Made by a program: the position numbers and the translations under genes. A stretch of 14,574 nucleotides of DNA from a virus (Duplodnaviria > Heunggongvirae > Uroviricota > Caudoviricetes): the IMG/VR virus record IMGVR_UViG_2851955134_000008; one strand, written 5' to 3'. The notes beneath the pieces are model-generated. The model did not search any database. It had not been told where the DNA came from and saw nothing but the letters and a program-made list of their open reading frames with translations. Positions within the stretch are counted from its first letter, which is position 1. Each line of letters opens with the position of its first letter. Shown here one piece after another: positions 1-14,574 of the stretch.

Positions 1-1284
1 TTACTTCTTCGCCTCTGCAACCACTTTACTACCCACGCCGCGGTTATTGTATTCCCACATGCGGTTGTAGTTAGTGTCATTCAGATTGCGCTGTATTTCG
101 TCGTTATCATCTACGCTGCCGGTATTACCCGCAAACGGACGATTAGAGATCACCGCATCGGCCCACGGTTTAGCCGTGTTAAAACCTTCGTTGATGGCGC
201 TATCACGGATCACCACCTGACCGTTGGTATTGGCATCAACATCCAGCGAGCGGCCCAGTTGCGCCACACCATCACCGAAAGCATTGAAACGGCTGTTTAC
301 GGCGAGGAAACCGTAGTAAATGTTGGACAGCGTAGCCGGTGCAAACACATACGCTTCTTGCTGAGTACGTGAGTTCACCACGCGGAATTCGGTGTTATCG
401 AACACCACTGCGCCGCGACCAGAAACGATATCCACATCCCCTTCAATGTAGCTGTTGGTCACCAGCGTACGCGGCTGACGATTCGTTTCCAGACGGTTCT
501 GCACACCGCTGTTGGTGACAAAGAAGGTGTTCTGACGACCGAGAATGTTAACGTTGTTAATCTGTACCTGGTCACCATCAGTACGCAGTGCCACCGCCGG
601 ATGGTTACCTGCATCTACGCTATCGCCCAGCGTGTTTTCGATGGTCAGATTTTGCAGTTGCAGGCCATTGTTTTGTGACCAGAAGACCGCAGAGCAGAGA
701 ACACCGATACTGTCGCTGCGTTTGCTCTGGCAGCTATCGTACATATACCACGCTGGTTTACCTGGCATATATTTGCCGCGCGGGTTGACGTCGTGACGCC
801 AGTCGGCAGGGCTCATGCCACCATCAAGGGAAAGCCCAATCTTCACATCAATCGGTTTTTCACCTGTACCGTACAGAGTAATTCCACCCGGAGCGGCAGG
901 GACATATACCGTTCCCTGATACTCACCAGGCATCACGGCAATATACTGGCGCTTGTTGGTACGCTTGATAATTGCCGCATCTACCGCCGCCTGAATCGTG
1001 GTATGCGTTACACCTTGAGTGCCCGCCGGGCCGACAACAAAGTCAGGTTGCGCAGGCAGGGTAATCGGGGAAGGATTCCACGCTGCAGCACCTGGTGTCA
1101 GGGATGCAAAATAGTGTTGAGCATCGAAATTCTGCGCTTCTTTTGCCGACAGAATCGGGCGAGAAGAGGTACCAGGCGCGGTTTGATCAGAAGGACGTTG
1201 ATCGGGCGGGGTTGAGCTACAGGCGGTCAGCGTCACGCCAAAAGCCAATGCCAGCGCCAGACGGGAAACTGAAAATGTGTTCAC
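1..1284 (-). CDS. ybhC: YbhC-type outer-membrane lipoprotein (pectinesterase-like / acyl-CoA thioesterase family), chromosomal gene flanking attB-lambda
   Basis: Complete 427-aa ORF with a lipoprotein signal (LTACSS lipobox). It matches my recollection of E. coli YbhC and sits where ybhC lies beside the lambda attachment site. GC content is host-like. Confidence 0.85.
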   Translation of the reverse strand: MNTFSVSRLALALAFGVTLTACSSTPPDQRPSDQTAPGTSSRPILSAKEAQNFDAQHYFASLTPGAAAWNPSPITLPAQPDFVVGPAGTQGVTHTTIQAAVDAAIIKRTNKRQYIAVMPGEYQGTVYVPAAPGGITLYGTGEKPIDVKIGLSLDGGMSPADWRHDVNPRGKYMPGKPAWYMYDSCQSKRSDSIGVLCSAVFWSQNNGLQLQNLTIENTLGDSVDAGNHPAVALRTDGDQVQINNVNILGRQNTFFVTNSGVQNRLETNRQPRTLVTNSYIEGDVDIVSGRGAVVFDNTEFRVVNSRTQQEAYVFAPATLSNIYYGFLAVNSRFNAFGDGVAQLGRSLDVDANTNGQVVIRDSAINEGFNTAKPWADAVISNRPFAGNTGSVDDNDEIQRNLNDTNYNRMWEYNNRGVGSKVVAEAKK

Positions 1285-1315
1285 AGGTTGCTCCGGGCTA
1301 TGAAATAGAAAAATG

Positions 1316-1420
1316 AATCCGTTGAAGCCTGCTTTTTTATACTAAGTTGGCATTATAAAAAAGCATTGCTTATCAATTTGTTGCAACGAACAGGTCACTA
1401 TCAGTCAAAATAAAATCATT
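1316..1420. other. attL: attL (B-O-P' junction) of a lambda-type integration; 15-bp core GCTTTTTTATACTAA at 1331..1345
   Basis: The exact lambda att core is read directly. To its left is GTTGAAGCCT, the attB bacterial arm as I recall it. To its right is GTTGGCATTATAAAAAAGCATTGCTTATCAATTTGTTGCAACGAACAGGTCACTATCAGTCAAAATAAAATCATTATTTGATTTC, which I recall as the lambda P' arm leading into the int 3' end. Confidence 0.85.
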
Positions 1421-1685
1421 ATTTGATTTCAATTTTGTCCCACTCCCTGCCTCTGTCATCACGATACTGTGATGCCATGGTGTCCGACTTATGCCCGAGA
1501 AGATGTTGAGCAAACTTATCGCTTATCTGCTTCTCATAGAGTCTTGCAGACAAACTGCGCAACTCGTGAAAGGTAGGCGGATCCCCTTCGAAGGAAAGAC
1601 CTGATGCTTTTCGTGCGCGCATAAAATACCTTGATACTGTGCCGGATGAAAGCGGTTCGCGACGAGTAGATGCAATTATGGTTTC
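1419..1685 (-). pseudogene. int: Integrase remnant (3' third of lambda-type int, lacks N-terminal arm-binding and core-binding domains and part of the catalytic domain)
   Basis: Only the Int C-terminal segment up to the stop is present. It still includes the region around the catalytic tyrosine (LSARLYEKQ) and an intact internal GGATCC at 1579..1584. No xis ORF is present. Confidence 0.8.
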
Positions 1686-2057
1686 AACCATGTACCGGAT
1701 GTGTTCTGCCATGCGCTCCTGAAACTCAACATCGTCATCAAACGCACGGGTAATGGCTTTTTTGCTGGCCCCGTGGCGTTGTAAATGATCGATGCAGAGT
1801 GATTCAAACAGGTGCTGGGGCAGACCTTTTTCCATGTCGTCTGCCAGTTCTGCCTCTTTCTCTTCACGGGCGATCTGCTGGTAGTGACGCGTCCAGCTCT
1901 GAGCCTCAAGACGATCCTGAATGTAATAAGCGTTCATGGCTGAACTCCTGAAATAGCTGTGAAAATATCGCCCGCGAAATGCCGGGCTGATTAGGAAAAC
2001 AGGAAAGGAGGTTAGTGAATGCTTTTGCTTGATCTCAGTTTCAGTATTAATATCCAT
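1419..2057 (-). CDS. gam: In-frame chimeric ORF: lambda Gam (GamL start 2057, GamS start 1937; first ~124-127 codons) fused to the C-terminal ~85-88 codons of lambda integrase
   Basis: The N-terminal part ([15 protein letters not shown]...[15 protein letters not shown]...EHIRYMV) matches recalled lambda Gam. The C-terminal part ([21 protein letters not shown]...REWDKIEIK) matches the recalled lambda Int C-terminus. A good RBS (CAGGAG) precedes the GamS ATG. Confidence 0.85.
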
Positions 2058-2155
2058 TTTTTATAAGCGTCGACGGCCTCACGAAACATCTTTTCATCGC
2101 CAATAAAAGTGGCGATAGTGAATTTAGTCTGGATAGCCATAAGTGTTTGATCCAT
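2012..2155 (-). CDS. kil: Kil (47-aa host cell-division inhibitor of lambda)
   Basis: [50 protein letters not shown] matches recalled lambda Kil. AGGAG lies 8 nt upstream of the ATG. It overlaps the cIII 3' end as in lambda. Confidence 0.75.
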
Positions 2156-2288
2156 TTTTTGGGACTCCTGGCTGATTAAGTATGTCGATAAGGCGTTTCC
2201 ATCCGTCACGTAATTTACGGGTGATTCGTTCAAGTAAAGATTCGGAAGGGCAGCCAGCAACAGGCCACCCTGCAATGGCATATTGCAT
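2124..2288 (-). CDS. cIII: CIII (54-aa FtsH/HflB inhibitor, lysogeny regulator)
   Basis: I translated this ORF by hand: [54 protein letters not shown]. It matches recalled lambda CIII and is below the 60-aa cutoff of the supplied ORF track. Confidence 0.8.
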   Translation of the reverse strand: MQYAIAGWPVAGCPSESLLERITRKLRDGWKRLIDILNQPGVPKNGSNTYGYPD

Positions 2289-2360
2289 GGTGTGCTCCTT
2301 ATTTATACATAACGAAAAACGCCTCGAGTGAAGCGTTATTGGTATGCGGTAACGCCGCGC

Positions 2361-2729
2361 TCAGGCGGCTTTGATAGTCATATCATCTGAATCAAATATT
2401 CCTGATGTATCGATATCGGTAATTCTTATTCCTTCGCTACCATCCATTGGAGGCCATCCTTCCTGACCATTTCCATCATTCCAGTCGAACTCACACACAA
2501 CACCATATGCATTTAAGTCGCTTGAAATTGCTATAAGCAGAGCATGTTGCGCCAGCATGATTAATACAGCATTTAATACAGAGCCGTGTTTATTGAGTCG
2601 GTATTCAGAGTCTGACCAGAAATTATTAATCTGGTGAAGTTTTTCCTCTGTCATTACGTCATGGTCGATTTCAATTTCTATTGATGCTTTCCAGTCGTAA
2701 TCAATGATGTATTTTTTGATGTTTGACAT
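2361..2729 (-). CDS. ea10: Ea10-like early pL-operon protein (122 aa)
   Basis: 122-aa ORF in the position and orientation of lambda ea10 between cIII and the sieB/N region. The sequence fits my recollection of Ea10, but I am less certain of this one. Confidence 0.65.
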   Translation of the reverse strand: MSNIKKYIIDYDWKASIEIEIDHDVMTEEKLHQINNFWSDSEYRLNKHGSVLNAVLIMLAQHALLIAISSDLNAYGVVCEFDWNDGNGQEGWPPMDGSEGIRITDIDTSGIFDSDDMTIKAA

Positions 2730-2989
2730 CTATTCATATCCTCACAGATAAAAAATCGCCCTCACATTGGAGGGCAAAGAAGATTTCCAATAATCAGAAC
2801 AAGTCGGCTCCTGTTTAGTTACGAGCGACATTGCTCAGTGTATTCACTCGTTGGAATGAATACACAGTGCAGTGTTTATTAGTATGCCTGTCTTTTAACC
2901 ACATCAGGCTCGGTGGTTCTCGTGTACCCCTACAGCGAGAAATCGGATAAACTCTATTCACCCCTACAGAGAGCAAAAGAGAAACGCCG

Positions 2990-3571
2990 ATGAACAACTC
3001 ATGGTGGCAGGAACTAATGCATTTTTTCCTGCAAGGAATGACACTTAAACAGTTGATTCATATGCTAATCATCCTAATCATATTGATTATTGTTATGCCT
3101 GTAAGCGTAAAAGAATGGATAAACCTGCATAATCCAGAAATCCTTCCTCATTACTGGATGTATTACATCCTGTTGTTTTGCGTTAGCTATGTGCTTAACG
3201 GCGTTGTTAATTCCGCTTATCACGCTGTGACTGAAAGAATTGAGATATTCGCTGCTCAGAAGCGCAAATCTAAAGAAGAGAAATACGTGCAAGATTTGTT
3301 TGATTCGTTAACTCTTGGAGAAAGAGCGTATTTGGCATTCGCTGTAGCCGCTAATAACCAGCTAAAGACAGAAAAGGGAAGCCCTGAAGCAATCTCATTG
3401 CTCGAAAAAGGGCTTCTTATTCGGGTACCTTCTGCTACTGGATATCCTGAAATCGACCGTTTTGTTATCCCGGAACGCTATAGAAATGAGTGCTACATTA
3501 GGTTTGCTGGGAAGAAAGACAGTCTTATGGATGAACTTATCGCTCAGGATAAGCATGGCAAAAACAAGTAA
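2990..3571 (+). CDS. sieB: SieB-like superinfection exclusion protein (inner-membrane abortive-infection protein)
   Basis: 193-aa ORF with a hydrophobic N-terminal segment (LIHMLIILIILIIVMPV) and a charged C-terminal domain. It is transcribed opposite to pL, between N and ea10, where sieB lies in lambda and P22. Confidence 0.6.
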   Translation: MNNSWWQELMHFFLQGMTLKQLIHMLIILIILIIVMPVSVKEWINLHNPEILPHYWMYYILLFCVSYVLNGVVNSAYHAVTERIEIFAAQKRKSKEEKYVQDLFDSLTLGERAYLAFAVAANNQLKTEKGSPEAISLLEKGLLIRVPSATGYPEIDRFVIPERYRNECYIRFAGKKDSLMDELIAQDKHGKNK

Positions 3572-3587
3572 TTAGCAAATTAATTTA

Positions 3588-3860
3588 TCATCTCGCCGTC
3601 AGTTGTTTTGATTTCCGGTAGCCTGCCGCGTAAATGGCTACGTTTGGCAGGCAAATACTTCCACTGCATTCATCTGCCTTCTTGCAGCGAAGGCTTCCGA
3701 GTGATGCTGCTTTGTCTGCTCTGACGCAACCAGAGAGCTTTAGCGCAATTTTTCGCGCCAGTCGCTGTTCTTGCATTGCCTGCTCACGTTGAGCCTGTCT
3801 GCGTGCTCTGCGGCGATTTCTGGCGTTATCGTCAGCCAGATATGTAATGACTACTGCCAT
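3588..3860 (-). CDS. N: N-type transcription antitermination protein (P22 gene 24-like C-terminus, distinct arginine-rich motif)
   Basis: 90-aa ORF with an N-terminal arginine-rich motif (NARNRRRARRQAQREQ). Its C-terminus (LPNVAIYAAGYRKSKQLTAR) closely resembles the recalled P22 gp24 C-terminus (LPGVALYAAGHRKSKQITAR). It is the first gene downstream of pL/nutL. Confidence 0.8.
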   Translation of the reverse strand: MAVVITYLADDNARNRRRARRQAQREQAMQEQRLARKIALKLSGCVRADKAASLGSLRCKKADECSGSICLPNVAIYAAGYRKSKQLTAR

Positions 3861-3967
3861 GTTGACCTCCGATGATTGACTTTGGCGGTGACGCGCCGGG
3901 TGCTTATCTTCCGGTTGCCGTCGTGCAGCTGCACTTCACGTCACCCCAAAGCCAACTACTCTTTGGT

Positions 3968-4008
3968 TCCCGCATTTCGGCGGGACAATCCCATCAATGT
4001 TAAAGAGC
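3968..4008 (-). promoter_or_regulatory. Putative nutL: boxA-like GCTCTTTAACA (3998..4008) followed by boxB-like hairpin (3968..3985)
   Basis: On the minus strand GCTCTTTAACA matches the boxA consensus. Twelve nt downstream is a hairpin (TCCCGC-CGAAAT-GCGGGA). It lies between pL and the N start codon. Confidence 0.5.
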
Positions 4009-4055
4009 CTGCCAATCTGTTCCGTTTGGCTACCAGCGTCCTGCCGATGACTTAA

Positions 4056-4108
4056 ATTTAAGATTTCTTTAACTATTGGTCAAGAGCGTTTTTGAAGAAA
4101 ACTTAAAT
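4056..4108 (-). promoter_or_regulatory. OL/pL region: at least two 18-bp P22-type operator sites (4056..4073 ATTTAAGATTTCTTTAAC; 4091..4108 TTTGAAGAAAACTTAAAT)
   Basis: Both sites fit the NNNNAAGNNNNCTTNNNN pattern shared with the three OR sites. They sit upstream of nutL and N on the leftward transcription unit. Confidence 0.6.
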
Positions 4109-4151
4109 TTTGTTGCGAAGCTTAAGTTTTGCTTTGATTTTTAAAGGAAAG

Positions 4152-4172
4152 AAAAAAAGGGGCGAATGCCCC
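4152..4172 (-). terminator. Rho-independent terminator immediately after the repressor gene
   Basis: On the minus strand a GGGGC-ATTC-GCCCC hairpin is followed by TTTTTTTC, starting right after the cI stop codon. Confidence 0.6.
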
Positions 4173-4823
4173 TTATGGAAGGTTTGCTATTTTTGCATCG
4201 ACAACTACACCGATGATTTTGCAGTTCCCGTTGATCTCAATCATCGGATATTGTGGGTTAAGTGGTTTTAGAAACCTTCTGCCAGCATCAATAACTAACT
4301 TCTTGAAAGTTGCCTCGTTTTCTCCTTCGAGCTTTGCCACTACCAGCTTCCCATTACGAGGTTCTACTTCAGGATCGACTAGTATTATCATCCCTTCCGG
4401 GATGCTAAGACCGGCTGGAGCCGTCATCGAATCACCCTTTACGTCCAGCCAAAACGAATCTTCTGAACAATCTACGGTTGTATCGTACCAGTTATCTATT
4501 GCACGCTTATGATATGGCTCTACAGCTTCCATCCAACATCCTGCGCTTACCCAACTAATTAGAGGATACGAACCTCTTGGATCATGCCTGCTGTGATAGG
4601 CAATGTTTGAAAGACTATCTTCTCCTTTCAACAAGTAATCAGGGGAGCACTGTAAAGCCTTGGCTAAAGCCAATAGGTTTTCGCCATTGGGCTCAGTTTC
4701 AGAACGCTCCCATTGGGAAATAGCAACATTAGACACGCCAACCATCTTGCCAAGGGCAGCCTGCCTAATCTTAAGTTCTTTTCTGCGAGCGCGAATACGC
4801 TCACCCATCAGTTGTGTATTCAT
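4173..4823 (-). CDS. cI: Prophage repressor, P22 C2-type (N-terminal HTH, C-terminal LexA-like S24 autopeptidase domain)
   Basis: 216-aa ORF, near-identical over its length to my recollection of P22 C2 (MNTQLMGERIRARRK.LKIRQAALGKMVGVSNVAISQWERSETEPNGENLLAL...). The Ser/Lys dyad context (GDSM ... K) is present. Confidence 0.9.
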   Translation of the reverse strand: MNTQLMGERIRARRKELKIRQAALGKMVGVSNVAISQWERSETEPNGENLLALAKALQCSPDYLLKGEDSLSNIAYHSRHDPRGSYPLISWVSAGCWMEAVEPYHKRAIDNWYDTTVDCSEDSFWLDVKGDSMTAPAGLSIPEGMIILVDPEVEPRNGKLVVAKLEGENEATFKKLVIDAGRRFLKPLNPQYPMIEINGNCKIIGVVVDAKIANLP

Positions 4824-4889
4824 AGTTAAGACATCTTAAATAAACTTGACTTAAGATTCCTTTGATAGATAATTTAAGTGTTCTTTAAT
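4824..4889. promoter_or_regulatory. OR3-OR2-OR1 operators (4824..4841, 4849..4866, 4872..4889) with pR (-35 TTGACT 4846..4851, -10 GATAAT 4868..4873) and divergent pRM
   Basis: Three 18-bp sites fit NNNNAAGNNNNCTTNNNN, with 7- and 5-bp spacers. OR1 ATTTAAGTGTTCTTTAAT matches the recalled P22 OR1. The region lies between the divergent cI and cro starts. Confidence 0.75.
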
Positions 4890-4903
4890 TTCGGAGCGAG
4901 TCT

Positions 4904-5023
4904 ATGTACAAGAAAGATGTTATCGACCACTTCGGAACCCAGCGTGCGGTACCGAATACTGAAGAATTACGCCAAAACACTGACAGGAGCAGGAGTATGA
5001 AGTCAGAGATAACAATCAACTAA
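4904..5023 (+). pseudogene. cro: cro remnant: first 16 codons of a P22-type cro, then unrelated sequence to a stop (39 codons)
   Basis: MYKKDVIDHFGTQRAV matches the recalled P22 Cro N-terminus. The next 23 codons (PNTEELRQNTDRSRSMKSEITIN) do not, and the ORF is too short for a Cro fold. Confidence 0.7.
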
Positions 5024-5085
5024 TACTGTTTTGTTGATTTTTGCTTGTAATTGGCGTTCTGGTCTGAGTTTTGTGGAGTAAGTTG

Positions 5086-5463
5086 ATGCGTGATATTCAG
5101 ATGGTTCTTGAGCGTTGGGGAGCGTGGGCGGCTAATAATCATGAAGATGTGACCTGGTCGTCCATTGCCGCCGGTTTTAAGGGATTAATTCCTTCAAAAG
5201 TAAAATCTCGCCCACAATGTTGTGACGATGACGCGATGATCATTTGCGGGTGCATGGCCCGTCTGAAAAAGAACAACAGCGATTTGCATGATTTATTGGT
5301 GGACTATTATGTCGGCGGCATGACTTTTATGGCGCTTGCACGTAAGCATGGGCGATCTGATTGTTGGGTTGGCAGGATGCTTCAGAAAGCTGAGGGCGTA
5401 GTGGAGGGTATGCTGATGGTGTTGGATCTCCGATTGGAGATGGATGCTGATTGTTCGAAATAA
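5086..5463 (+). CDS. Q: Late-gene antiterminator Q, phage-21 / DLP12 QuuD / P22 gp23 type
   Basis: [37 protein letters not shown]... matches the recalled QuuD/gp23 family. GGAG lies 7 nt upstream of ATG 5086. It is followed by a short leader and tR'. Confidence 0.85.
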
Positions 5464-5562
5464 TTAAAGGAAAAGTTGCTGTCTGATTGTCATTAGTCTA
5501 ACATTTTAAATGTTGGAATCGCAACGTAGTTATTATCATATAACAGCTTGTTTCCTGATTTA

Positions 5563-5590
5563 GCCAGCCTCCCCAAAGGCTGGTCTTTTT
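5563..5590 (+). terminator. tR'-like rho-independent terminator of the short late leader transcript (Q-antiterminated)
   Basis: CCAGCC-TCCCCAAA-GGCTGG hairpin followed by TCTTTTTCT, about 100 nt after the Q stop. The late promoter pR' and qut site are expected in 5464..5562 but are not resolved. Confidence 0.6.
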
Positions 5591-5618
5591 CTAATAAGTA
5601 TTATTTCGGGTAGGGATT

Positions 5619-6143
5619 TTATTGTTTAACCCATAATAATTCATTGACATTGAATCCCAACTTTTGAGCGGTTCGCACATAGTCTGCTTTTACTTTATCT
5701 GGAATAGTTGGGGTCCTTGCCAGAATCCATAGGTATTCTCTGTTCGGACCACTGACAAGAGCATACTTATACTCATCATCCAGTTTGATTACATTATAGC
5801 CACCATAGAAGGGGCCAAAAAACGAAACCTTCAATGCTGCAGTTTTAGTATCTCCAGTAAAGTATGCTTTACCTTCGCTCTCGCTCCATTTATTTTTCGT
5901 TGGATCGTATCCACGGTTAAGTACACGAATCCCTCCGTCGTTCCGTTTTCCATAAGTAGCGCTGACCTGTTCCAGACCACGTTCGAACCGGTTCTCGAGG
6001 CGAGCTATTTCATACCATTTTCCGAGGTAGCGGTTGGCGTCAAAATTTGTAATCGGCTGCACACCTTTAGGTGGTGTCGGGGCCTTACATGCTATAAGAG
6101 TGAAAGAGAGTGCAATGCCAGTCAACACAGGCCATAACTTCAT
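5619..6143 (-). CDS. Blc-like bacterial lipocalin, outer-membrane lipoprotein
   Basis: 174-aa ORF with a lipoprotein signal (LIAC lipobox). It resembles recalled E. coli Blc throughout (NFDANRYLGKWYEIARLENRFERGLEQVSATY ... KVSFFGPFYGGYNVI ... YLWILARTPT). Confidence 0.85.
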   Translation of the reverse strand: MKLWPVLTGIALSFTLIACKAPTPPKGVQPITNFDANRYLGKWYEIARLENRFERGLEQVSATYGKRNDGGIRVLNRGYDPTKNKWSESEGKAYFTGDTKTAALKVSFFGPFYGGYNVIKLDDEYKYALVSGPNREYLWILARTPTIPDKVKADYVRTAQKLGFNVNELLWVKQ

Positions 6144-6335
6144 AATAAATCCTGTACTTTTGATAGTTGAGAGTAAGTATGAAAGATAGATGATTACGAC
6201 CGATCACTTAAAGAACTTTCATACTATATTAGGAATAGTCCATAACAGAAAAATTGTCAGTGATGACGCCAGAAAGGCAATTTATTCCGTGCACTACACA
6301 GTTTATGTGTTAATGAATTAGTCAAGGGGGAGAAT

Positions 6336-7295
6336 ATGATAAAAAAACCTGTGATTGGAATCAGCGGTTGTTTGGCCGGTTCTGCTGTTCGTTTTGATGG
6401 TGGTCACAAAAGAGCTGACTTTTTAATGGACAAATTAGTGGAATGGGTAACATTCAGACCAGTATGTCCGGAAATGGCTATAGGGCTGCCAGTTCCGCGT
6501 CCTGCTCTACGTCTTGTGCGCTCGATGCAAGGAAATATACGGATGTGTTTCAGCCACGACCAGAATGAGGATGTGACAGAGAGAATGACAGAGTTTAGTC
6601 GTTCTTATATGGACAAATTAAAGGATGTATCGGGGTTTGTGGTTTGTGCTAAATCTCCCAGCTGTGGCATGGAGCGCGTGCGTGTCTATGATGAAAATGG
6701 TAATCGAGGTCGTAAAGATGGAGTGGGACTATTTACGAGCACTTTGATGGAAAAGTTTTCCTGGCTACCGGTTGAAGAGGATGGGCGATTACATGATCCA
6801 GTGCTTCGTGAGAATTTTGTTGAAAGAGTTTTTGCTTTGCATGAGCTCAATCACCTTTACAAGGAGAAATTATCAAGAAGAGAGTTATTAGCTTTTCATA
6901 GTCGTTATAAGCTTCAGTTGTTGGCGCATAGTCAGGCAGGCTATAAAGATATGGGACCATTTGTGGCTGCAATACACGAGTGGGCGGACCTTGAATCATA
7001 CTTTGAGGTGTATCGTGATAAGCTGATGGCGATTCTCAGAAAACCTGCATCACGTAAAAATCACACGAATGTGCTGATGCATATACAGGGGTATTTTAGT
7101 AACTACTTAAGTACACGCCAGCGTAAAGAGTTGAGCGAGGTTATACTTAACTATCGTTCTGGCACATTACCTCTTCTTGCGCCGTTGACTCTGCTGAAGC
7201 ATTATCTGGGTGAGTATCCTAATGATTACTTGCTTACACAGAATTACTTCGATCCCTATCCGGACGAACTGGCTCTAAGACTGATGGTAAATTAA
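6336..7295 (+). CDS. DUF523 (TudS-like, putative Fe-S thiouracil desulfidase fold) fused to a DUF1722 (YbgA-like) domain
   Basis: 319-aa ORF with a GGGGG-like RBS (AAGGGGGAG) upstream. The N-terminal third has three cysteines (C12, C44, C105) spaced as in the TudS family as I recall it. The family assignment is from memory and needs an HMM search. Confidence 0.55.
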   Translation: MIKKPVIGISGCLAGSAVRFDGGHKRADFLMDKLVEWVTFRPVCPEMAIGLPVPRPALRLVRSMQGNIRMCFSHDQNEDVTERMTEFSRSYMDKLKDVSGFVVCAKSPSCGMERVRVYDENGNRGRKDGVGLFTSTLMEKFSWLPVEEDGRLHDPVLRENFVERVFALHELNHLYKEKLSRRELLAFHSRYKLQLLAHSQAGYKDMGPFVAAIHEWADLESYFEVYRDKLMAILRKPASRKNHTNVLMHIQGYFSNYLSTRQRKELSEVILNYRSGTLPLLAPLTLLKHYLGEYPNDYLLTQNYFDPYPDELALRLMVN

Positions 7296-7646
7296 TTGTA
7301 TGCGATATCATCCAAAAGGATGAGTTCCTGCATGCAGGATATTTACAATCGTAAAAACTACACTATGATACCCAGAGTGTCAGTTTGTATAAAAACTCTG
7401 TTTACGCTGAAGAAACAATTGAGATGCAACTTAAAGTTGGTAAACATGCCAGTCAAAATATATAATATTATGATTCCACGCAGCTATATATAATATAACA
7501 GATTGGTTTAATAATTTGTCTTTGTGAGTTAAATACATAATTTTATACTTGTGATGCAATGAAATTTTCCTTATTGTTGAACTGGCGAATATTGATTTTC
7601 CACCTATACTTACCTGGTGTAACCCCAATGATATCAGGTGGATAAT

Positions 7647-8378
7647 ATGCCATACATATGTTCTATCATTTTGGTGTTGAACTCGTTTGATGTCCGAATT
7701 GGTAAAGAAGATATTTTGTTTAAAAAAGGAAGTGCTGTTCTCATTGATTACAATTTAAAAGATTTTTTTTCATCAAATATAGATCATGTAATGATCGTAG
7801 ATGTTGAAGAGAAAACAGTTAATGATTTCTTTAAAAGCAACACACTCTCACCTTTTTCTGTAAGAAGGTTTTATCCGGCATACTTGATGGTGGAATGTGA
7901 AGATTTTTCATTGTTAAAGAACTTGATTGCATGCTTGAATTGTGATGGCAGAACTGTGGATTTTGTTAGAAATCAAATATCACTTGCATGTCTTGCTATC
8001 TTATCTTCAGAGAAAATAGTGCAAAGTTTTTTATTTGGATGTCTTAATAGTTTAGGAAGTAAAGTTAAGGCTATTATTCACACGGATATATCTGCAGCAT
8101 GGAGACTTTGTGATATATCTTCAAGACTGTATCTGAGTGAAAGTCTGTTAAAAAGAAAATTAAAGCACGAAGGCTTATCATTTAGTAAGTTAATTCTTGA
8201 AGAGCGAATGGTGATGGCGGAAAGGTTATTAAGCTACAATTTATATTCTGTTGGAAAAGTTGCTGAGATATGCGGTTATGAAAACACGTCATATTTTGTA
8301 AGTGTTTTCAGAAGGTATTTTGGTGTTCCTCCCCATCAATATTCATCAAGATTTTTTTTAGAAAAAGACATGATGTAA
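7647..8378 (+). CDS. AraC/XylS-family transcriptional regulator (AppY/EnvY/GadX-like), in an AT-rich island
   Basis: C-terminal 100 aa carry the two-HTH AraC signature (..LSFSKLILEERMVMAERLL..VGKVAEICGYENTSYFVSVFRRYFGVPPHQY). AGGTGG lies 7 nt upstream of ATG 7647. An alternative GTG start is at 7638. Confidence 0.8.
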   Translation: MPYICSIILVLNSFDVRIGKEDILFKKGSAVLIDYNLKDFFSSNIDHVMIVDVEEKTVNDFFKSNTLSPFSVRRFYPAYLMVECEDFSLLKNLIACLNCDGRTVDFVRNQISLACLAILSSEKIVQSFLFGCLNSLGSKVKAIIHTDISAAWRLCDISSRLYLSESLLKRKLKHEGLSFSKLILEERMVMAERLLSYNLYSVGKVAEICGYENTSYFVSVFRRYFGVPPHQYSSRFFLEKDMM

Positions 8379-8439
8379 CGTGATGCGTTTTAATGATTTT
8401 GTAATTTTCGTATTTGATAATTGTATGATGCTTTCAGCT

Positions 8440-8470
8440 ACGCCAGAATAATCGCGGCGTTTTTCTTTTT
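8440..8470 (+). terminator. Putative rho-independent terminator downstream of the AraC-family gene
   Basis: ACGCC-N11-GGCGT hairpin followed by TTTTTCTTTTT. Confidence 0.45.
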
Positions 8471-8565
8471 GAATAGATGTTCAAGCCTTACGCTAATGTA
8501 ACTTCTATACCTTTCCTCTTCGTTCCGAACCGTGTACACCATCCGTTATTTGCGGAGGTGAGGCT

Positions 8566-8781
8566 ATGAAATCCATGGATAAGTTAACAACGGGTGTCGC
8601 CTATGGCACCTCAGCAGGTAGTGCCGGTTACTGGTTTTTACAGCTGCTCGATAAAGTCACGCCCTCACAGTGGGCAGCAATAGGTGTGCTGGGTAGCCTG
8701 GTATTTGGCCTGCTGACGTACCTGACAAACCTTTATTTCAAGATTAAAGAAGATAAGCGCAAGGCTGCGAGAGGTGAATAA
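8566..8781 (+). CDS. S: Pinholin, phage-21 S21 type, with dual starts (MKSMDK: antiholin from 8566, holin from 8575)
   Basis: 71-aa ORF matching recalled S21/EssD (..[43 protein letters not shown]). Two transmembrane segments. It lies immediately upstream of the endolysin. Confidence 0.9.
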
Positions 8782-9278
8782 TGCCTCCATCATTACGAAA
8801 AGCCGTTGCTGCTGCTATTGGTGGCGGAGCAATTGCTATAGCATCAGTGTTAATCACTGGCCCAAGTGGTAACGATGGTCTGGAAGGTGTCAGCTACATA
8901 CCATACAAAGATATCGTTGGCGTATGGACTGTATGTCACGGGCATACAGGAAAAGACATCATTCCCGGTAAAACGTATACCGAAGCAGAATGCAAAGCCC
9001 TCCTGAATAAAGACCTTGCCACGGTAGCCAGACAAATTAACCCGTACATCAAAGTCGATATACCGGAAACAACGCGCGGCGCTCTTTACTCGTTCGTCTA
9101 TAACGTGGGCGCAGGCAATTTCAGAACATCTACTCTTCTTCGCAAAATAAACCAGGGCGATATCAGGGGCGCATGTGACCAGCTACGTCGCTGGGCATAC
9201 GCTGGCGGTAAGCAATGGAAAGGCCTGATGACTCGTCGTGAGATTGAGCGTGAGGTCTGTTTGTGGGGGCAACAATGA
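8781..9278 (+). CDS. R: SAR endolysin (signal-anchor-release lysozyme), R21 type
   Basis: 165-aa ORF with an N-terminal glycine/alanine-rich SAR segment ([20 protein letters not shown]) followed by a lysozyme domain. Its start overlaps the S stop (TAATG). Confidence 0.9.
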
Positions 9279-9739
9279 GCAGGGTAACCGCGATTATCTC
9301 CGCTCTGGTTATCTGCATCATCGTCTGCCTGTCATGGGCTGTTAATCATTACCGTGATAACGCCATTACCTACAAAGCCCAGCGCGACAAAAATGCCAGA
9401 GAACTGAAGCTGGCGAACGCGGCAATTACTGACATGCAGATGCGTCAGCGTGATGTTGCTGCGCTCGATGCAAAATACACGAAGGAGTTAGCTGATGCGA
9501 AAGCTGAAAATGATGCTCTGCGTGATGATGTTGCCGCTGGTCGTCGTCGGTTGCACATCAAAGCAGTCTGTCAGTCAGTGCGTGAAGCCACCACCGCCTC
9601 CGGCGTGGATAATGCAGCCTCCCCCCGACTGGCAGACACCGCTGAACGGGATTATTTCACCCTCCGGGAACGACTGGTAATGATGCAGGCCCAACTTGAA
9701 GGTGCTCAGCAATACATAACCGAGCAGTGTTTAAAGTAA
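9275..9739 (+). CDS. Rz: Rz i-spanin (inner-membrane spanin subunit)
   Basis: Starts at ATGA, overlapping the R stop. It has an N-terminal transmembrane segment and a coiled-coil-like periplasmic domain. Rz1 is embedded in the +1 frame. Confidence 0.85.
9495..9680 (+). CDS. Rz1: Rz1 o-spanin (outer-membrane lipoprotein), embedded within Rz in a different frame
   Basis: 61-aa ORF with a lipobox (LVVVGC) and a proline-rich mature region ([15 protein letters not shown]), entirely inside Rz. Confidence 0.8.
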
Positions 9740-9876
9740 AATCTTAACTACAATATGATTCATTTTGATGATTGTTTCATAAGGAACAGTGAAGTAAGAT
9801 CTAAGAGGAGTTAAATTTTATACAGTATAATCATAATATTGCAGCAAGGTGGTTATAATTGAAAGAATATTTAGAT

Positions 9877-11334
9877 ATGAATACATCTCATGTAAGAGTT
9901 GTTACTCATATGTGTGGGTTCCTGGTTTGGCTCTATAGTCTTTCAATGTTGCCACCAATGGTTGTAGCATTGTTTTATAAAGAAAAAAGCCTGTTCGTTT
10001 TCTTTATAACTTTCGTTATATTTTTTTGCATTGGTGGCGGAGCGTGGTATACAACTAAGAAATCTGGCATTCAATTACGTACCCGTGATGGGTTTATTAT
10101 AATTGTAATGTTTTGGATTTTGTTTTCTGTTATTAGTGCATTCCCTTTATGGATTGACTCAGAACTTAATTTAACGTTCATTGATGCTCTGTTTGAAGGG
10201 GTTTCTGGAATAACAACAACAGGAGCAACTGTAATTGATGATGTTAGTTCATTACCTCGGGCATATTTGTACTATCGGTCACAGTTAAATTTTATAGGTG
10301 GTTTAGGAGTTATTGTTCTGGCGGTTGCTGTATTGCCATTATTGGGTATTGGTGGTACAAAGCTTTATCAGTCAGAAATGCCGGGGCCATTTAAGGATGA
10401 CAAACTCACTCCCCGCCTGGCCGATACGTCACGGACACTGTGGATAACTTATTCTTTATTAGGTATTGCTTGTATTGTCTGTTATAGACTTGCAGGAATG
10501 CCTTTGTTTGATGCTATTTGTCACGGGATTTCCACAGTTTCGCTTGGTGGTTTCTCAACTCATAGCGAGAGTATCGGATATTTTAATAACTATTTGGTTG
10601 AGCTGGTGGCTGGTTCTTTTTCCCTGCTATCGGCTTTCAACTTCACTCTTTGGTATATTGTTATTAGCAGGAAAACGATAAAACCTTTAATCAGAGATAT
10701 TGAACTTCGTTTCTTTCTGTTAATAGCCTTAGGGGTGATCATTGTTACCTCTTTCCAGGTCTGGCATATAGGTATGTATGACTTGCATGGAAGTTTTATT
10801 CATTCGTTTTTTCTTGCCAGCTCCATGCTCACTGATAATGGTTTAGCTACGCAGGATTATGCAAACTGGCCCACGCACACGATAGTGTTTTTGCTGTCGT
10901 CAAGTTTCTTTGGGGGATGTATAGGTTCAACTTGTGGTGGAATTAAGTCACTTCGATTTCTTATACTTTTCAAACAAAGCAAACACGAGATAAATCAGCT
11001 TTCTCATCCCAGAGCGTTGTTGAGTGTAAATGTAGGAGGGAAGATAGTTACAGATCGTGTAATGAGGTCTGTATGGAGTTTCTTTTTTCTTTATACTCTC
11101 TTCACGGTGTTTTTTATACTGGTGTTAAATGGTATGGGATATGATTTTCTTACATCATTTGCAACAGTGGCTGCATGTATTAATAATATGGGATTAGGTT
11201 TTGGGGCTACTGCATCGTCATTCGGAGTGCTTAATGACATTGCAAAATATTTAATGTGCATAGCTATGATTCTTGGTCGCCTTGAAATTTATCCTGTTAT
11301 TATATTGTTTTCAGGTTTTTTTTGGCGCTCCTAA
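9877..11334 (+). CDS. trkG: TrkG/TrkH-family potassium uptake transporter (prophage-borne, as trkG in the Rac prophage)
   Basis: 485-aa polytopic membrane ORF matching recalled E. coli TrkG from MNTSHVRVVTHMCGFLVWLYSL onward. The region is AT-rich. An alternative in-frame TTG lies at 9859. Confidence 0.9.
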   Translation: MNTSHVRVVTHMCGFLVWLYSLSMLPPMVVALFYKEKSLFVFFITFVIFFCIGGGAWYTTKKSGIQLRTRDGFIIIVMFWILFSVISAFPLWIDSELNLTFIDALFEGVSGITTTGATVIDDVSSLPRAYLYYRSQLNFIGGLGVIVLAVAVLPLLGIGGTKLYQSEMPGPFKDDKLTPRLADTSRTLWITYSLLGIACIVCYRLAGMPLFDAICHGISTVSLGGFSTHSESIGYFNNYLVELVAGSFSLLSAFNFTLWYIVISRKTIKPLIRDIELRFFLLIALGVIIVTSFQVWHIGMYDLHGSFIHSFFLASSMLTDNGLATQDYANWPTHTIVFLLSSSFFGGCIGSTCGGIKSLRFLILFKQSKHEINQLSHPRALLSVNVGGKIVTDRVMRSVWSFFFLYTLFTVFFILVLNGMGYDFLTSFATVAACINNMGLGFGATASSFGVLNDIAKYLMCIAMILGRLEIYPVIILFSGFFWRS

Positions 11335-11420
11335 TATATGGCTGATTTATAATTGTGAGTTTAATATTATATTGACTCACTCATTGATCCAATACCTAAC
11401 TTTACCAGCAACACCTCCGC

Positions 11421-11455
11421 CCCCAGTAGCACTGGCTGCTGGGGTGCGTTTTATT
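11421..11455 (+). terminator. Putative rho-independent terminator after trkG
   Basis: CCCCAG..CTGGGG stem (with internal AGC/GCT pairing) followed by TGCGTTTTATTC. Confidence 0.4.
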
Positions 11456-11471
11456 CATAAAGCAAGGCTGT

Positions 11472-13304
11472 ATGAGCGAGAAATTAAAGATAGTCTATCG
11501 CCCATTACAAGAATTGTCACCGTATGCGCACAACGCCAGGACGCACAGTACTGAGCAGGTGGCACAACTGGTAGAAAGTATTAAGCAATTCGGCTGGACT
11601 AATCCGGTGCTGATTGACGAAAAGGGCGAAATTATTGCGGGTCACGGTCGTGTTATGGCGGCTGAAATGCTCAAAATGGATTCTGTTCCGGTCATTGTTC
11701 TGTCTGGCCTGACGGATGAGCAGAAAAAGGCGTACCGCCTGGCAGATAATCGCCTACCGATGAATGCTGGCTGGGATGAAGATCTGTTGCGGATGGAGCT
11801 GTCGGACCTAATCAATGCTGATTTTGATGTCTCCCTGACAGGCTTCGGCCCGACACAAATTGATGAACTGTTGACGGATGTTTTGCCCGGTACAGGAAAT
11901 AAGGAGGAGGGGAATACCAATATATCCGGCGTCACGGTGGTGTTCCGGGCCGGTGAGCAGGAGCAGACACCGCCGGAGGGATTTGAATCCTCCGGCTCCG
12001 AGACGGTGCTCGGTACAGAAGTGAAATATGACACGCCGATCACCCGGACCATCACGTCGGCAAACATTGACCGTCTGCGTTTTACTTTCGGCGTGCAGGC
12101 ACTGGTGGAAACCACCTCAAAGGGGGACAGGAATCCATCGGAAGTCCGCCTGCTGGTTCAGATACAACGTAACGGTGGCTGGGTGACGGAAAAAGACATC
12201 ACCATTAAGGGTAAAACCACTTCACAGTATCTGGCCTCGGTGGTGGTGGATAACCTGCCGCCGCGCCCGTTCAGTATCCGGATGCGCAGGATGACGCCGG
12301 ACAGCACCACAGACCAGCTGCAGAACAAAACGCTCTGGTCGTCATACACCGAAATTATCGATGTGAAACAGTGCTACCCGAACACGGCACTGTTCGGCGT
12401 GCAGGTGGACTCGGAGCAGTTCGGCAGCCAGCAGGTGAGCCGTAATTATCATCTGCGCGGGCGTATTCTGCAGGTGCCGTCGAATTATAACCCGCAGACG
12501 CGGCAATACAGCGGTATCTGGGACGGAACGTTTAAACCGGCATACAGCAACAACATGGCCTGGTGTATGTGGGATATGCTGACCCATCCGCGCTACGGCA
12601 TGGGGAAACGTCTTGGTGCAGCGGATGTAGATAAATGGGCGCTGTATGTCATCGGCCAGTACTGCGACCAGTCGGTGCCGGACGGCTTTGGCGGCACGGA
12701 GCCGCGCATCACCTGTAATGCGTACCTGACCACACAGCGCAAGGCGTGGGATGTGCTCAGTGATTTCTGCTCGGCGATGCGCTGTATGCCGGTATGGAAC
12801 GGGCAGACGCTGACGTTCGTGCAGGACCGACCATCAGATAAGGTGTGGACCTATAACCGCAGTAATGTGGTGATGCCGGATGATGGCGCGCCGTTCCGCT
12901 ACAGCTTCAGCGCCCTGAAGGACCGCCATAATGCCGTTGAGGTGAACTGGATTGACCCGAACAACGGCTGGGAGACGGCGACAGAGCTTGTTGAAGATAC
13001 GCAGGCCATTGCCCGTTACGGTCGTAACGTCACGAAGATGGATGCCTTTGGCTGTACCAGCCGGGGGCAGGCGCACCGCGCCGGGCTGTGGCTGATTAAA
13101 ACGGAACTGCTGGAAACGCAGACCGTGGACTTCAGCGTGGGTGCGGAAGGGCTTCGCCATGTACCGGGGGATGTCATTGAAATCTGCGATGATGACTATG
13201 CGGGTATCAGCATCGGCGGGCGTGTGCTGGCGGTGAACAGCCAGACCCGGACGCTGACGCTCGACCGTGAAATCACGCTGCCATCCTCCGGTAAATCCGT
13301 TTAA
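11472..13304 (+). CDS. J: In-frame chimera: ParB-like nuclease-domain protein N-terminus (~145 aa, YnaK-like) fused to an internal segment of lambda tail-tip protein J (to about J residue 530), then a stop 3 codons past the J homology
   Basis: Residues 1-145 carry a ParB/Srx-like motif ([11 protein letters not shown]). From [36 protein letters not shown] to REITLPSSG the sequence matches recalled lambda J. J's N-terminal ~65 residues and C-terminal ~600 residues, including the receptor-binding end, are absent. Confidence 0.85.
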
Positions 13305-13608
13305 CCACAGCTCCGTCCCTAAACATCCACTTACTGGAATCATCAGCGCAGCGGTTGGCTGTAATATCTGGAACCTCAACGACGCTATAACCTTCAGGGT
13401 TAAGCGTGGAGGCATCTTTGGTGATGGCGACAATAATATTATTTGCATCGTAAACAATCTTTATTGTGTCTGGCTGAAAGTTTTTCACTTCCTCATACCA
13501 GTTTTTTCCGTCTTCGGACCATAACCAGATAACATCAAAATTCTTTGTTAGCTGATATTGTTCTTTTGTTTTTGGATTTCCAGACTTAATATTTTTTAAA
13601 TGCTGCAT
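13273..13608 (-). pseudogene. tfa: Tail fibre assembly gene (Mu U / e14 TfaE-like family), 3'-truncated at the junction with J and reading antisense into J sequence
   Basis: N-terminus [14 protein letters not shown]...[30 protein letters not shown] resembles the recalled Tfa family. The ORF is 111 aa against roughly 190 aa for that family. Its last codons overlap the J-homologous sequence on the other strand. Confidence 0.6.
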
Positions 13609-13611
13609 AAA

Positions 13612-14574
13612 TTACACCTGTACGACGTTATACCATGTGCCATTGATGTATTTTTGTATTGGTCTGAATACTGCCGGATCATCGCCATCAACTGCACCGA
13701 TAATGCCAAGCCCCGTAATTGCATGACCTGATTTCTCATACATCACGCCTTTTTGCATAGTCTGAACAACACGTGTACCAAGTCGGACATCTCTCACATA
13801 ACGTGAGTCAAAATTACCATAATTGCCGGGAATAACTTGCGCACCGCAAAGCCAGTTGCCATTGTTGTCCATGTACGCCTGACCATCGGTGCCATTGGCT
13901 GTCCTTGAGTTATTAATCATGTAGATGCCAAATTGCTTATTCCCCAGTCCACCAATCATAAATTTGCGATCAGCGTGGTCCTGACGAAGTAATGCCTGCG
14001 CACCATCGGTGGATACCGCATTGCGTCCCAAAATAACATTCTGGTCACGCATATGAATCCACATGCCGGTACTACTGTTAATTGCAAAACGGTTTGCAAA
14101 TATATCCCCTGTAACATCAAGACCATGCCCCATGCTTATCCGACCAGTTCTGAGATTAAGCGTAAAGGGGCGTAGTGGCCCTATATCACCATTTTCTCCC
14201 TCATTCTCTCGTGTAGGGATGATATGCAGGCATTCTTCAGAACGACGAAAAATAGCACCAAAAGATGAATTAAATATCCTCAGTGCATTGACTGTCGATA
14301 TTTTTACTTCACTGCTGAAAAGGGCTTTAACAAGGACAGACAAAGCATCCCATTTAAGAGTCATCAGGTCTTTTGTTGTGGTGCTCTGGCGGCTTCTCCA
14401 TTTGAAATATTCATTGCCGTTGTCGCCTGTTTCAAACCACATGTATGAATCAGTGTCGCTGTCGGCATTATTTTTAAAACCAATCTTTGCCCAGTCAGTA
14501 TTTCTAATCCAGGCAAGGATTGAGTCGTTTTCAAAAGTAAGCCCACCGGACAAGGTATCGCCATTCTTTTGCAC
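13612..14574 (-). CDS. stf: Tail fibre protein, C-terminal portion (5' end lies beyond the window), directly upstream of tfa
   Basis: Open frame from the window edge to a stop at 13612, four nt before the tfa start. The glycine/asparagine-rich sequence is typical of a fibre distal domain. The labelled first Met is not the real start. Confidence 0.6.
   Translation of the reverse strand: MQKNGDTLSGGLTFENDSILAWIRNTDWAKIGFKNNADSDTDSYMWFETGDNGNEYFKWRSRQSTTTKDLMTLKWDALSVLVKALFSSEVKISTVNALRIFNSSFGAIFRRSEECLHIIPTRENEGENGDIGPLRPFTLNLRTGRISMGHGLDVTGDIFANRFAINSSTGMWIHMRDQNVILGRNAVSTDGAQALLRQDHADRKFMIGGLGNKQFGIYMINNSRTANGTDGQAYMDNNGNWLCGAQVIPGNYGNFDSRYVRDVRLGTRVVQTMQKGVMYEKSGHAITGLGIIGAVDGDDPAVFRPIQKYINGTWYNVVQV

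Follow-up and report, generated by a model that had tools for sequence, protein, structure and literature searches.

A defective lambdoid prophage at att-lambda beside ybhC, probably derived from one mosaic parent by four deletions

The window analysed in this study is a 14,574-nt stretch of DNA held as a virus record of the Caudoviricetes (IMG/VR IMGVR_UViG_2851955134_000008). Our analysis indicated that positions 1331–14574 constitute most of a defective (“grounded”) lambdoid prophage of ~13.7 kb, which lies at the lambda attachment site (att-lambda) beside the host gene ybhC and derives from a single, already mosaic parent through four deletions; we put the probability of this reading at about 0.9. 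Mosaicism, morons (phage cargo genes, a concept covered in the review PMC6379469) and decay to grounded lambdoid remnants are established (PMC6379469, citing Juhala et al., 2000 and Bobay et al., 2014). The element is an ordinary deletion derivative within a familiar class of prophages, one that has been sequenced before but, as far as could be found, carries no name. Apart from annotation it is of little importance; it does illustrate cleanly the decay of a mosaic lambdoid phage once integrated, all four deletion joints being placed to the base. An earlier note on this DNA had proposed a module-level mosaic with at least three deletion junctions, each module boundary being a candidate recombination joint. 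Four deletion junctions were found, and both the mosaic and its scars are real; the claim about every boundary held only in part, because most of the steps in composition mark cargo edges and the mosaic was inherited whole. Uniform identity to a single phage genome was also checked, and the best phage record covers 47% of the window at 93%.

Insertion site, deletion joints and relatives

The module map was built with local blastn and blastp against lambda, phage 21, P22 and the K-12 prophages Rac, DLP12 and Qin, supported by Pfam and NCBIfam, and the joints were mapped to the base by alignment to the fuller relatives in YSP8-1 and HeN100. The host gene ybhC occupies positions 1–1284 on the minus strand and is 100% identical to the annotated ybhC of FORC_031, YSP8-1 and HeN100. 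The 15-bp lambda att core GCTTTTTTATACTAA was read directly at 1331–1345, 46 bp from the end of ybhC. Positions 1331–1685, comprising the att core and the 3′ end of int, are 100% identical at the nucleotide level to lambda 27724–28078, and lambda's annotated core (27724–27738) is the start of this matching stretch. The prophage, which occupies the classical lambda site, thus begins exactly at position 1331 (attL).

All the DNA to the right of the att core, up to the window end, is phage-derived, and blastp and Pfam searches gave the lambdoid order int'-gam-kil-cIII-ea10-sieB-N-cI-cro'-Q-cargo-S-R-Rz-trkG-parB'-J'-tfa'/stf'. Int is reduced to residues 269–356 (blastp), and xis, exo, bet, most of cro, cII, O, P, the replication origin (ori), terminase, the head genes and most tail genes are gone from the window. 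With only this part of Int, and with xis, O, P, ori, terminase and the head genes lost, the element cannot excise, replicate or form particles. The open reading frames (ORFs) of cI, N, sieB, cIII, kil, ea10, Q, the lipocalin, the YbgA-like and AraC-like genes, S, R, Rz/Rz1 and trkG are still intact, and from these genes imm21/P22-type immunity, SieB exclusion and expression of the cargo genes would be expected. No tRNA was found in the window, and the cIII thermoregulator was its sole Rfam match.

The four deletion joints, J1 to J4, differ in their microhomology. J1 is an 8-bp repeat, ATGGTTTC, at 1678–1685 and joins int codon 269 to gam codon 127, with a loss of 6,065 bp in YSP8-1 coordinates, one strain-specific IS1 counted in. 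The result is a Gam(1–127)–Int(269–356) in-frame fusion ORF at 1419–2057 (minus strand), its Gam part matching lambda Gam at 96.9% and its Int part the C-terminus of lambda Int at 100% (blastp). No protein record was found for this 212-aa ORF; a 172-aa form, using an internal Gam start, has been called in public assemblies and led us to the sister assemblies considered below. J2 is a 2-bp TA at 4950–4951 where cro breaks off at codon 16 and the 3′ end of ylcG follows, giving a cro'–ylcG fusion (16 cro codons; 4904–5023, plus strand), and its loss relative to YSP8-1 is 4,656 bp, covering the rest of cro, cII, O, P with ori, ren, the nin genes and rusA. J3, a GAG at 11907–11909, joins codon 146 of the ParB-like gene to J codon 56 with the loss of the packaging genes, all head genes and most tail genes; the YnaK' (146 codons)–J (codons 56–517) in-frame fusion ORF at 11472–13304 (plus strand) carries the Pfam domains ParB_N, FNIII-A_GpJ and Phage-tail_3 together. 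J4, at 13291/13292, has zero microhomology and joins mid-J to the interior of an inverted tfa gene; relative to HeN100 it removed 6,210 bp containing the rest of J, lom, stf and tfa. Both J1 and J3 thus gave long in-frame fusion ORFs that are called as single proteins with mixed Pfam domains. Each has a one-in-three chance of being in frame, or about 1 in 9 jointly, which is unremarkable.

Related prophages hold att-lambda in many E. coli genomes, for example YSP8-1, where the early and late regions are nearly full, FORC_031, where the prophage is another deletion derivative, and HeN100. The prophages of YSP8-1 (NZ_CP037910), MB30, MB46 and others share with the window the insertion site, immunity, Q, cargo, lysis genes and trkG. 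The YSP8-1 prophage, read only as far as the terminase genes, is 99.9–100% identical to window 1–11909 once J1, J2 and the IS1 copies of YSP8-1, which the window lacks, are set aside, and copies of this type keep int-xis-exo-bet, cro-cII-O-P-ren-nin-rusA and the terminase genes. The discontinuities between the two at 3545–3554 and 6811–6819, with overlaps of 9–10 bp, are IS1 insertions in YSP8-1 and not window events. Further to the right, HeN100 keeps L-K-I-J-lom-stf-tfa together with the inverted tail-fibre cassette.

Joints other than the deletions were found intact elsewhere. At 2881–2884, lambda/phage 21 similarity ends at 2880, similarity to P22-type sieB begins at 2885 (blastn) and ral is absent; this region is unbroken in YSP8-1. 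A further mosaic joint, at 9666/9667, lies inside Rz, 73 bp before the stop. A five-sequence alignment showed that the window, lambda, DLP12 and Rac are identical up to 9666, whereas from 9667 on, across the final 24 codons of Rz, the sequences fall into two versions, one in the window and Rac, the other in lambda and DLP12. Phage IdasGreatGrand is colinear across Q, cargo and lysis genes at 97.9–99.2%, and phage vB_EcoS-683R6 across lysis genes, trkG and ynaK at 98.1%. Since the non-deletion joints that were checked are already colinear at 98–100% in fuller prophages or viable phages, the mosaic was inherited whole, and only the deletions are events of this locus.

The distribution of the joints points to an earlier origin for J3 and J4 than for J1 and J2. 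J3 and J4 are common to FORC_031 and other closed complete genomes; the FORC_031-type remnant (NZ_CP013190 and other complete genomes) is 99.98% identical over window 5732–14574, both joints included. FORC_031 keeps int, xis and a DUF2513 gene and has an IS1 at a gap reaching from there to the lipocalin gene, whereas the window still has the genes from gam to cI, as well as Q, and carries J1 and J2. J1 and J2 were absent from all 5,426 complete genomes searched, and exact 38-nt scans across both joints gave no match in the genome, viral and metagenome contig collections. They are present in the drafts GCA_009820155.1, GCA_946060455.1 and GCA_965180935.1 and in several read-run assemblies, and the whole window is colinear at 99.98% in VNXK01000034.1 (GCA_009820155.1) and at 99.92% in GCA_946060455.1.

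In the third draft, GCA_965180935.1, contig 22 (L012) tracks the window to 9664 and then continues into a lambda-type Rz end, bor and nu1, with clustered mismatches from 9445. Contig 70 of the same assembly (L022, 6.1 kb) begins at window 9544 and carries trkG-ynaK'-J'. L012 had been considered a sister in which bor-nu1 replaced trkG-ynaK'-J' at the Rz joint; this candidate was downgraded in view of L022 and the clustered mismatches, and an assembler path through the repeated lysis cassette is at least as likely as a real exchange.

The PR–Q arrangement and the weighing of alternative readings

The immunity region had been described as P22-like in the earlier note, which is right in kind, though its repressor is nearer to that of phage 21. 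The cI gene (4173–4823, minus strand) is of the imm21/P22 immC type and full length at 216 aa; its product is 98.4% identical to phage 21 cI and 93.1% to P22 C2 (blastp), and it matches the PDB structures of the P22 C2 N-terminal DNA-binding domain with an E value of 1.8e-39. N-cI-cro' as a block (3669–4950) is 85% identical to phage 21 and 83% to P22 at the nucleotide level. The N-type antiterminator gene (3588–3860, minus strand; Pfam N_peptide) is a divergent allele, 56% identical to phage 21 N and 36% to P22 gp24. The region at 4824–4903 with the OR operators, PRM and PR is near-identical to the OR of phage 21 and P22, and a promoter scan gave 10 of 12 matches for PR, with −35 TTGACT at 4846–4851 and −10 GATAAT at 4868–4873.

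Downstream, Q (5086–5463, plus strand) encodes a DLP12 QuuD-type antiterminator with the Pfam domain Phage_antitermQ (PF06530). Its assignment to phage 21 in the earlier note has to be dropped, as it is 87.5% identical to DLP12 QuuD and has 32% identity over 84 aa to phage 21 Q (blastp); PDB chains of Q21 matched it weakly (37 bits, E 1.9e-8). The stretch ylcG'–Q at 4950–5445 is 90.7% identical to DLP12. With the whole stretch from cro codon 16 to Q taken out by J2, transcription from PR would now run directly into Q, and a scan of the plus strand at 4880–5086 predicted no terminator-like site between the two. From this layout, loss of the repressor would turn on late transcription and the lysis cassette without N. 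In terms of lambda genetics, the J2 arrangement is in effect an extreme form of the nin deletion.

The sister assemblies differ from the window in and around this circuit. In L011, L012 and L014 (three of four) the third base of the PR −35 is changed (G4848A, TTGACT to TTAACT), whereas TTGACT is kept in the window, in L013, in phage 21 and in P22. The change may be a promoter-down or an operator mutation in the rewired circuit, that is, a possible tuning or silencing. In L013, R has clustered changes, Q a substitution and the AraC-like gene a frameshift. Loss of the repressor in L012 and L013, suggested by calls of a 119-aa “truncated cI”, was rejected, as their DNA at 4173–4823 is identical to the window and the difference is one of gene calling only.

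According to the history that we favour, the parent would have been one temperate phage that was already mosaic. Its left modules would have comprised lambda-type int/xis and recombination genes, P22-type sieB and a phage 21/P22 immC-type repressor with its operators; its middle modules, a DLP12-type Q, a pinholin/endolysin lysis cassette and three cargo genes in the slot between Q and S; and its right modules, trkG between Rz and the ParB-like gene, lambda-type tail genes and an invertible tail-fibre segment of the P1/Mu/P2 type. After integration, four illegitimate deletions with microhomologies of 8, 2, 3 and 0 bp would have taken int(5′)-xis-exo-bet; cro to ylcG with the replication genes and origin; the packaging, head and most tail genes; and the 3′ part of J through the expressed tail-fibre genes. 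We infer both the order of these events and the illegitimate-recombination mechanism. Several observations weigh against this history. No single sequenced relative has the complete undeleted parent, and J of HeN100 is 97.7%, not 100%, identical to the J fragment, so that the tail end of the true parent has to be deduced. A GC (guanine-plus-cytosine) changepoint at 7287 falls inside the cargo block, though the block is always undivided in the phage records seen, and composition and patchy distribution are all that points to a foreign origin of the AT-rich genes.

The patchwork could instead have been assembled in this very chromosome among resident cryptic prophages (Rac, DLP12, Qin and a lambda-like one), with each boundary a local joint, which is in essence how the earlier note had read it. 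Such an origin would suit modules that are nearest to different named K-12 prophages and phages, the 9666/9667 joint inside Rz, a typical site of homologous exchange between lambdoid elements, and the passage of L012 from Rz into bor-nu1 rather than trkG. However, the colinearity of all the checked non-deletion joints in fuller prophages or viable phages means that these joints predate the locus, and L012 is ambiguous given L022 and the mismatches from 9445, so that we consider a local origin very unlikely. An assembly artefact, in which the window would be a chimeric contig joining several prophages, is harder still to credit: lambdoid lysis and tail genes are repeated in E. coli genomes, and short reads are mis-joined there, apparently also in L012, but the same order and joints recur in independent assemblies, and J3 and J4 are found in closed complete genomes.

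A different proposal concerns why the remnant persists rather than how it arose, namely that it is retained as a host-useful element, an SOS-triggered module for autolysis and cargo expression in which J2 placed Q under the cI-repressed PR. The intact state of cI, OR/PR, Q, S, R, Rz and Rz1, the lack of a predicted terminator between PR and Q, a late region 99% identical to that of a viable phage, the persistence of the J1 plus J2 architecture in at least three NCBI assemblies and several read-run assemblies, and the G4848A change, if it tunes or silences PR, would all be in keeping with it. On the other hand, persistence in a few near-identical isolates is a sign of shared descent and not of selection, what is altered in the sisters (the PR −35 and, in clusters, R and Q) fits selection against a dangerous cassette as well as selection for it, and the two in-frame fusions add nothing remarkable; we therefore regard this proposal as unlikely, if less so than the two preceding ones. 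Slightly more doubtful is its most specific form, in which the J2 rewiring would have created a compact, cI-controlled, N-independent circuit (PR-cro'-'ylcG-Q-late promoter-cargo-S-R-Rz/Rz1) that is kept, or in the sisters with G4848A tuned, as an altruistic device for autolysis and content release. If it were true, DNA damage would make carriers express the cargo and lyse without phage production. The PR–Q fusion is the only part of the element with experimental potential, since it predicts SOS-triggered lysis from a non-replicating remnant.

Base composition along the element

Composition was analysed with a sliding GC profile and likelihood-based binary segmentation, with 20 mononucleotide shuffles as the control. 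Six changepoints were detected, at 1298, 7287, 8590, 9729, 11404 and 13361, and none in the 20 shuffles, which bears out the composition shifts reported earlier. Against a host reference of 1.2-kb chunks (mean GC 0.520, standard deviation 0.035), the host gene ybhC has a GC of 0.530, followed by int'-gam-ea10 (0.43), sieB (0.416), N-cI-cro' (0.455), Q (0.460), the lipocalin (0.401), the YbgA-like gene (0.43), the AraC-like block (0.326), S-R-Rz (0.505), the trkG block (0.365), ynaK' (0.499), the J fragment (0.582) and the inverted tail-fibre cassette (0.428). The falls over AraC (0.33) and trkG (0.36) and the rise in J (0.58), all of which the earlier note had pointed out, are far beyond chance.

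The steps, taken as the difference between the 300 bp on either side of a boundary, were −0.23 at Rz/trkG, −0.21 at J4, +0.15 at trkG/ynaK, +0.13 at AraC/S, −0.12 at attL, −0.12 at the end of Q where the cargo begins, +0.12 at sieB/N and −0.11 at ybgA/AraC. With the same flanks, no significant step was present at J1 (+0.06), J2 (+0.01), J3 (+0.06) or the joint at 2880 (+0.02; 0.380 vs 0.403). Among the deletion joints, a sharp shift therefore marks only J4, as the other three have none, and the strong steps are the edges of AT-rich cargo genes, plus the J/tail-fibre joint, rather than deletion scars. The step at J4 arises because the GC-rich J relic abuts the AT-richer tail-fibre cassette. In lambda itself, bases 1–20000 have a GC of 0.569, the same J segment 0.581 and the part from 27724 to the end 0.460, so the high GC of the J fragment is native lambda composition. 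The fall at 9729 comes just after the 9666/9667 joint in Rz.

Rac trkG has a GC of 0.381. As judged by the dinucleotide measure delta*, only the lipocalin (159) and trkG (148) blocks lie outside the host range (maximum 112), which adds little beyond GC. From their composition, the AT-rich AraC-like regulator, trkG and the lipocalin gene would be cargo of foreign origin. In remnants of this type, GC jumps mark cargo and the native asymmetry of the arms, which calls for caution in composition-based boundary calling.

Retained modules, cargo and the tail-fibre cassette

Among named elements, the nearest to the window are Rac, DLP12 and the fuller YSP8-1-type prophages at att-lambda. The cryptic K-12 prophages Rac, DLP12 and Qin are of the same grounded lambdoid kind: they too bear deletion scars and have kept lysis genes and cargo, and DLP12 also has AT-rich AraC-type regulators (appY, GC 0.32; ybcM, GC 0.36). 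Rac sits at ttcA and DLP12 at argU, whereas the window element lies at att-lambda and, in contrast to both, has lambda-type integrase and recombination genes and imm21/P22-type immunity. With lambda, phage 21 and P22 it shares the gene order, and a GC-rich structural arm beside an AT-richer early region is native to lambda; those phages lack the window cargo at 5446–8534 and 9740–11400, and the window lacks replication, packaging and head genes. The lambda-B prophage of E. coli B (REL606/BL21), also defective, has been reported as a 12.1-kb occupant of attB (PMC4395058). Identity of the window with lambda-B was rejected, because the REL606 region (L009, 787952–799744) shares only int, xis and the site; it has ASCH and DUF4752 genes, other terminase genes and acyltransferases, with no trkG, lipocalin or imm21-type repressor. 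The limited overlap with lambda-B also indicates that att-lambda is used by different lambda-integrase phages.

Among the leftward early genes, which the earlier note had called a lambda-like left arm (a misnomer for genes whose similarity to lambda, at 98.6–100%, is otherwise as stated), kil, cIII and ea10 lie at 2012–2729 on the minus strand, with Ea10 100% identical in amino acids to lambda. The stretch gam-kil-cIII-ea10 (1678–2880) is 98.6% identical at the nucleotide level to lambda 32853–34055 and 97.4% to phage 21. The lambda cIII thermoregulator RNA is present at full length upstream of cIII, at 2243–2301 on the minus strand (Rfam RF01804, Lambda_thermo; 88.5 bits). The P22-type superinfection-exclusion gene sieB (2990–3571, plus strand; Pfam SieB) encodes a product 84.8% identical to P22 SieB, and its region (2885–3650) is 86.8% identical to P22 at the nucleotide level.

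Three cargo genes, identified with Pfam and NCBIfam, fill the Q–S slot: a Blc-like lipocalin gene (5619–6143, minus strand), a DUF523/DUF1722 YbgA-like gene (6336–7295, plus strand) and an AT-rich AraC/YdeO-like regulator gene (7647–8378, plus strand), with a terminator-like hairpin within the block at 5563–5584. The block as a whole (5446–8534) had no blastn match in lambda, phage 21, P22, DLP12, Rac or Qin, and it moves as one unit in 12 phage records (e.g., IdasGreatGrand, 99.2%). In DLP12 this slot is occupied by nmpC, in phage 21 by tRNAs and in other phages by porins; behind Rz, lambda, phage 21 and DLP12 have bor where the window and Rac have trkG. As slot contents vary in this way between relatives, these genes behave as morons, being present in some relatives and absent or replaced in others, and their composition is also distinct (GC 0.326 and 0.365 vs 0.505 in S-R-Rz).

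The lysis cassette is of the DLP12/phage 21 type, as had been proposed, with S, R, Rz and Rz1 all intact and in order on the plus strand. S (8566–8781) is of the 71-aa type, 100% identical to DLP12 EssD and 86% to S21; R (8781–9278) is 97% identical to DLP12 RrrD and 96% to R21; and Rz (9275–9739), with Rz1 embedded at 9495–9680, is 93–96% identical to the references, closest to lambda at 96%. The S-R-Rz block (8535–9729) is 94% identical to DLP12 and 90% to phage 21.

The potassium-transporter cargo gene trkG (9877–11334, plus strand) is AT-rich and encodes a product 99.2% identical to Rac TrkG. Over 2,431 bp (9295–11725), from the Rz end through trkG to ynaK, the window is 99.3% identical to Rac rzpR-trkG-ynaK and has the same flanking genes, in agreement with the Rac-like origin proposed for trkG and ynaK, while blastn gave no match in the window for Rac recET, racR, ydaS-W or stfR. 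In Rac, trkG has been described as an insertion that is related to trkH and has its own RNA-polymerase-bound promoter (PMC5811629). The ParB-like gene runs on at 11726–11909, 184 bp past the end of similarity to K-12 Rac ynaK (L005 16631); judging from the alignment, K-12 ynaK itself appears to be truncated, Rac having its own deletion joint there.

The J fragment (11907–13293) is lambda-like, as had been stated, with 96.3% identity to lambda 15670–17056, and is 96.9% identical to phage 21. Before 12164 it has one mismatch to phage 21 vs sixteen to lambda, and the pattern shifts further on; these patchy mismatches suggest that there may be intragenic mosaicism within J at 11907–13291.

Beyond J4 lies a tail-fibre cassette on the minus strand (13292–14574), which the earlier note had left unmentioned. 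It consists of tfa' (to 13608) and the C-terminal part of a tail-fibre gene (from 13612 past the window end), with the Pfam domains Caudo_TAP and Gp34_trimer. Its nucleotide identity to the S/U or Sv'/U' regions of P88, P7, D108, P1 and SfMu is 82–91%, and the P7 and P1 matches fall within the annotated invertible C-segment. The cassette is 100% identical to HeN100 26702–27984, where it lies inverted opposite a forward stf-tfa pair, and it is the silent alternative cassette of a Gin/Cin/Pin-type invertible tail-fibre segment. A working invertase switch is not present in the window, as the forward cassette was deleted by J4. Downstream of the cassette, outside the window, two relatives (L019 13208–14939; L010 28089–29820) carry a 64-aa resolvase/invertase remnant and, between this remnant and the host gene ybhB, an intact MASE4-GGDEF diguanylate cyclase gene, which looks like further prophage cargo next to attR.

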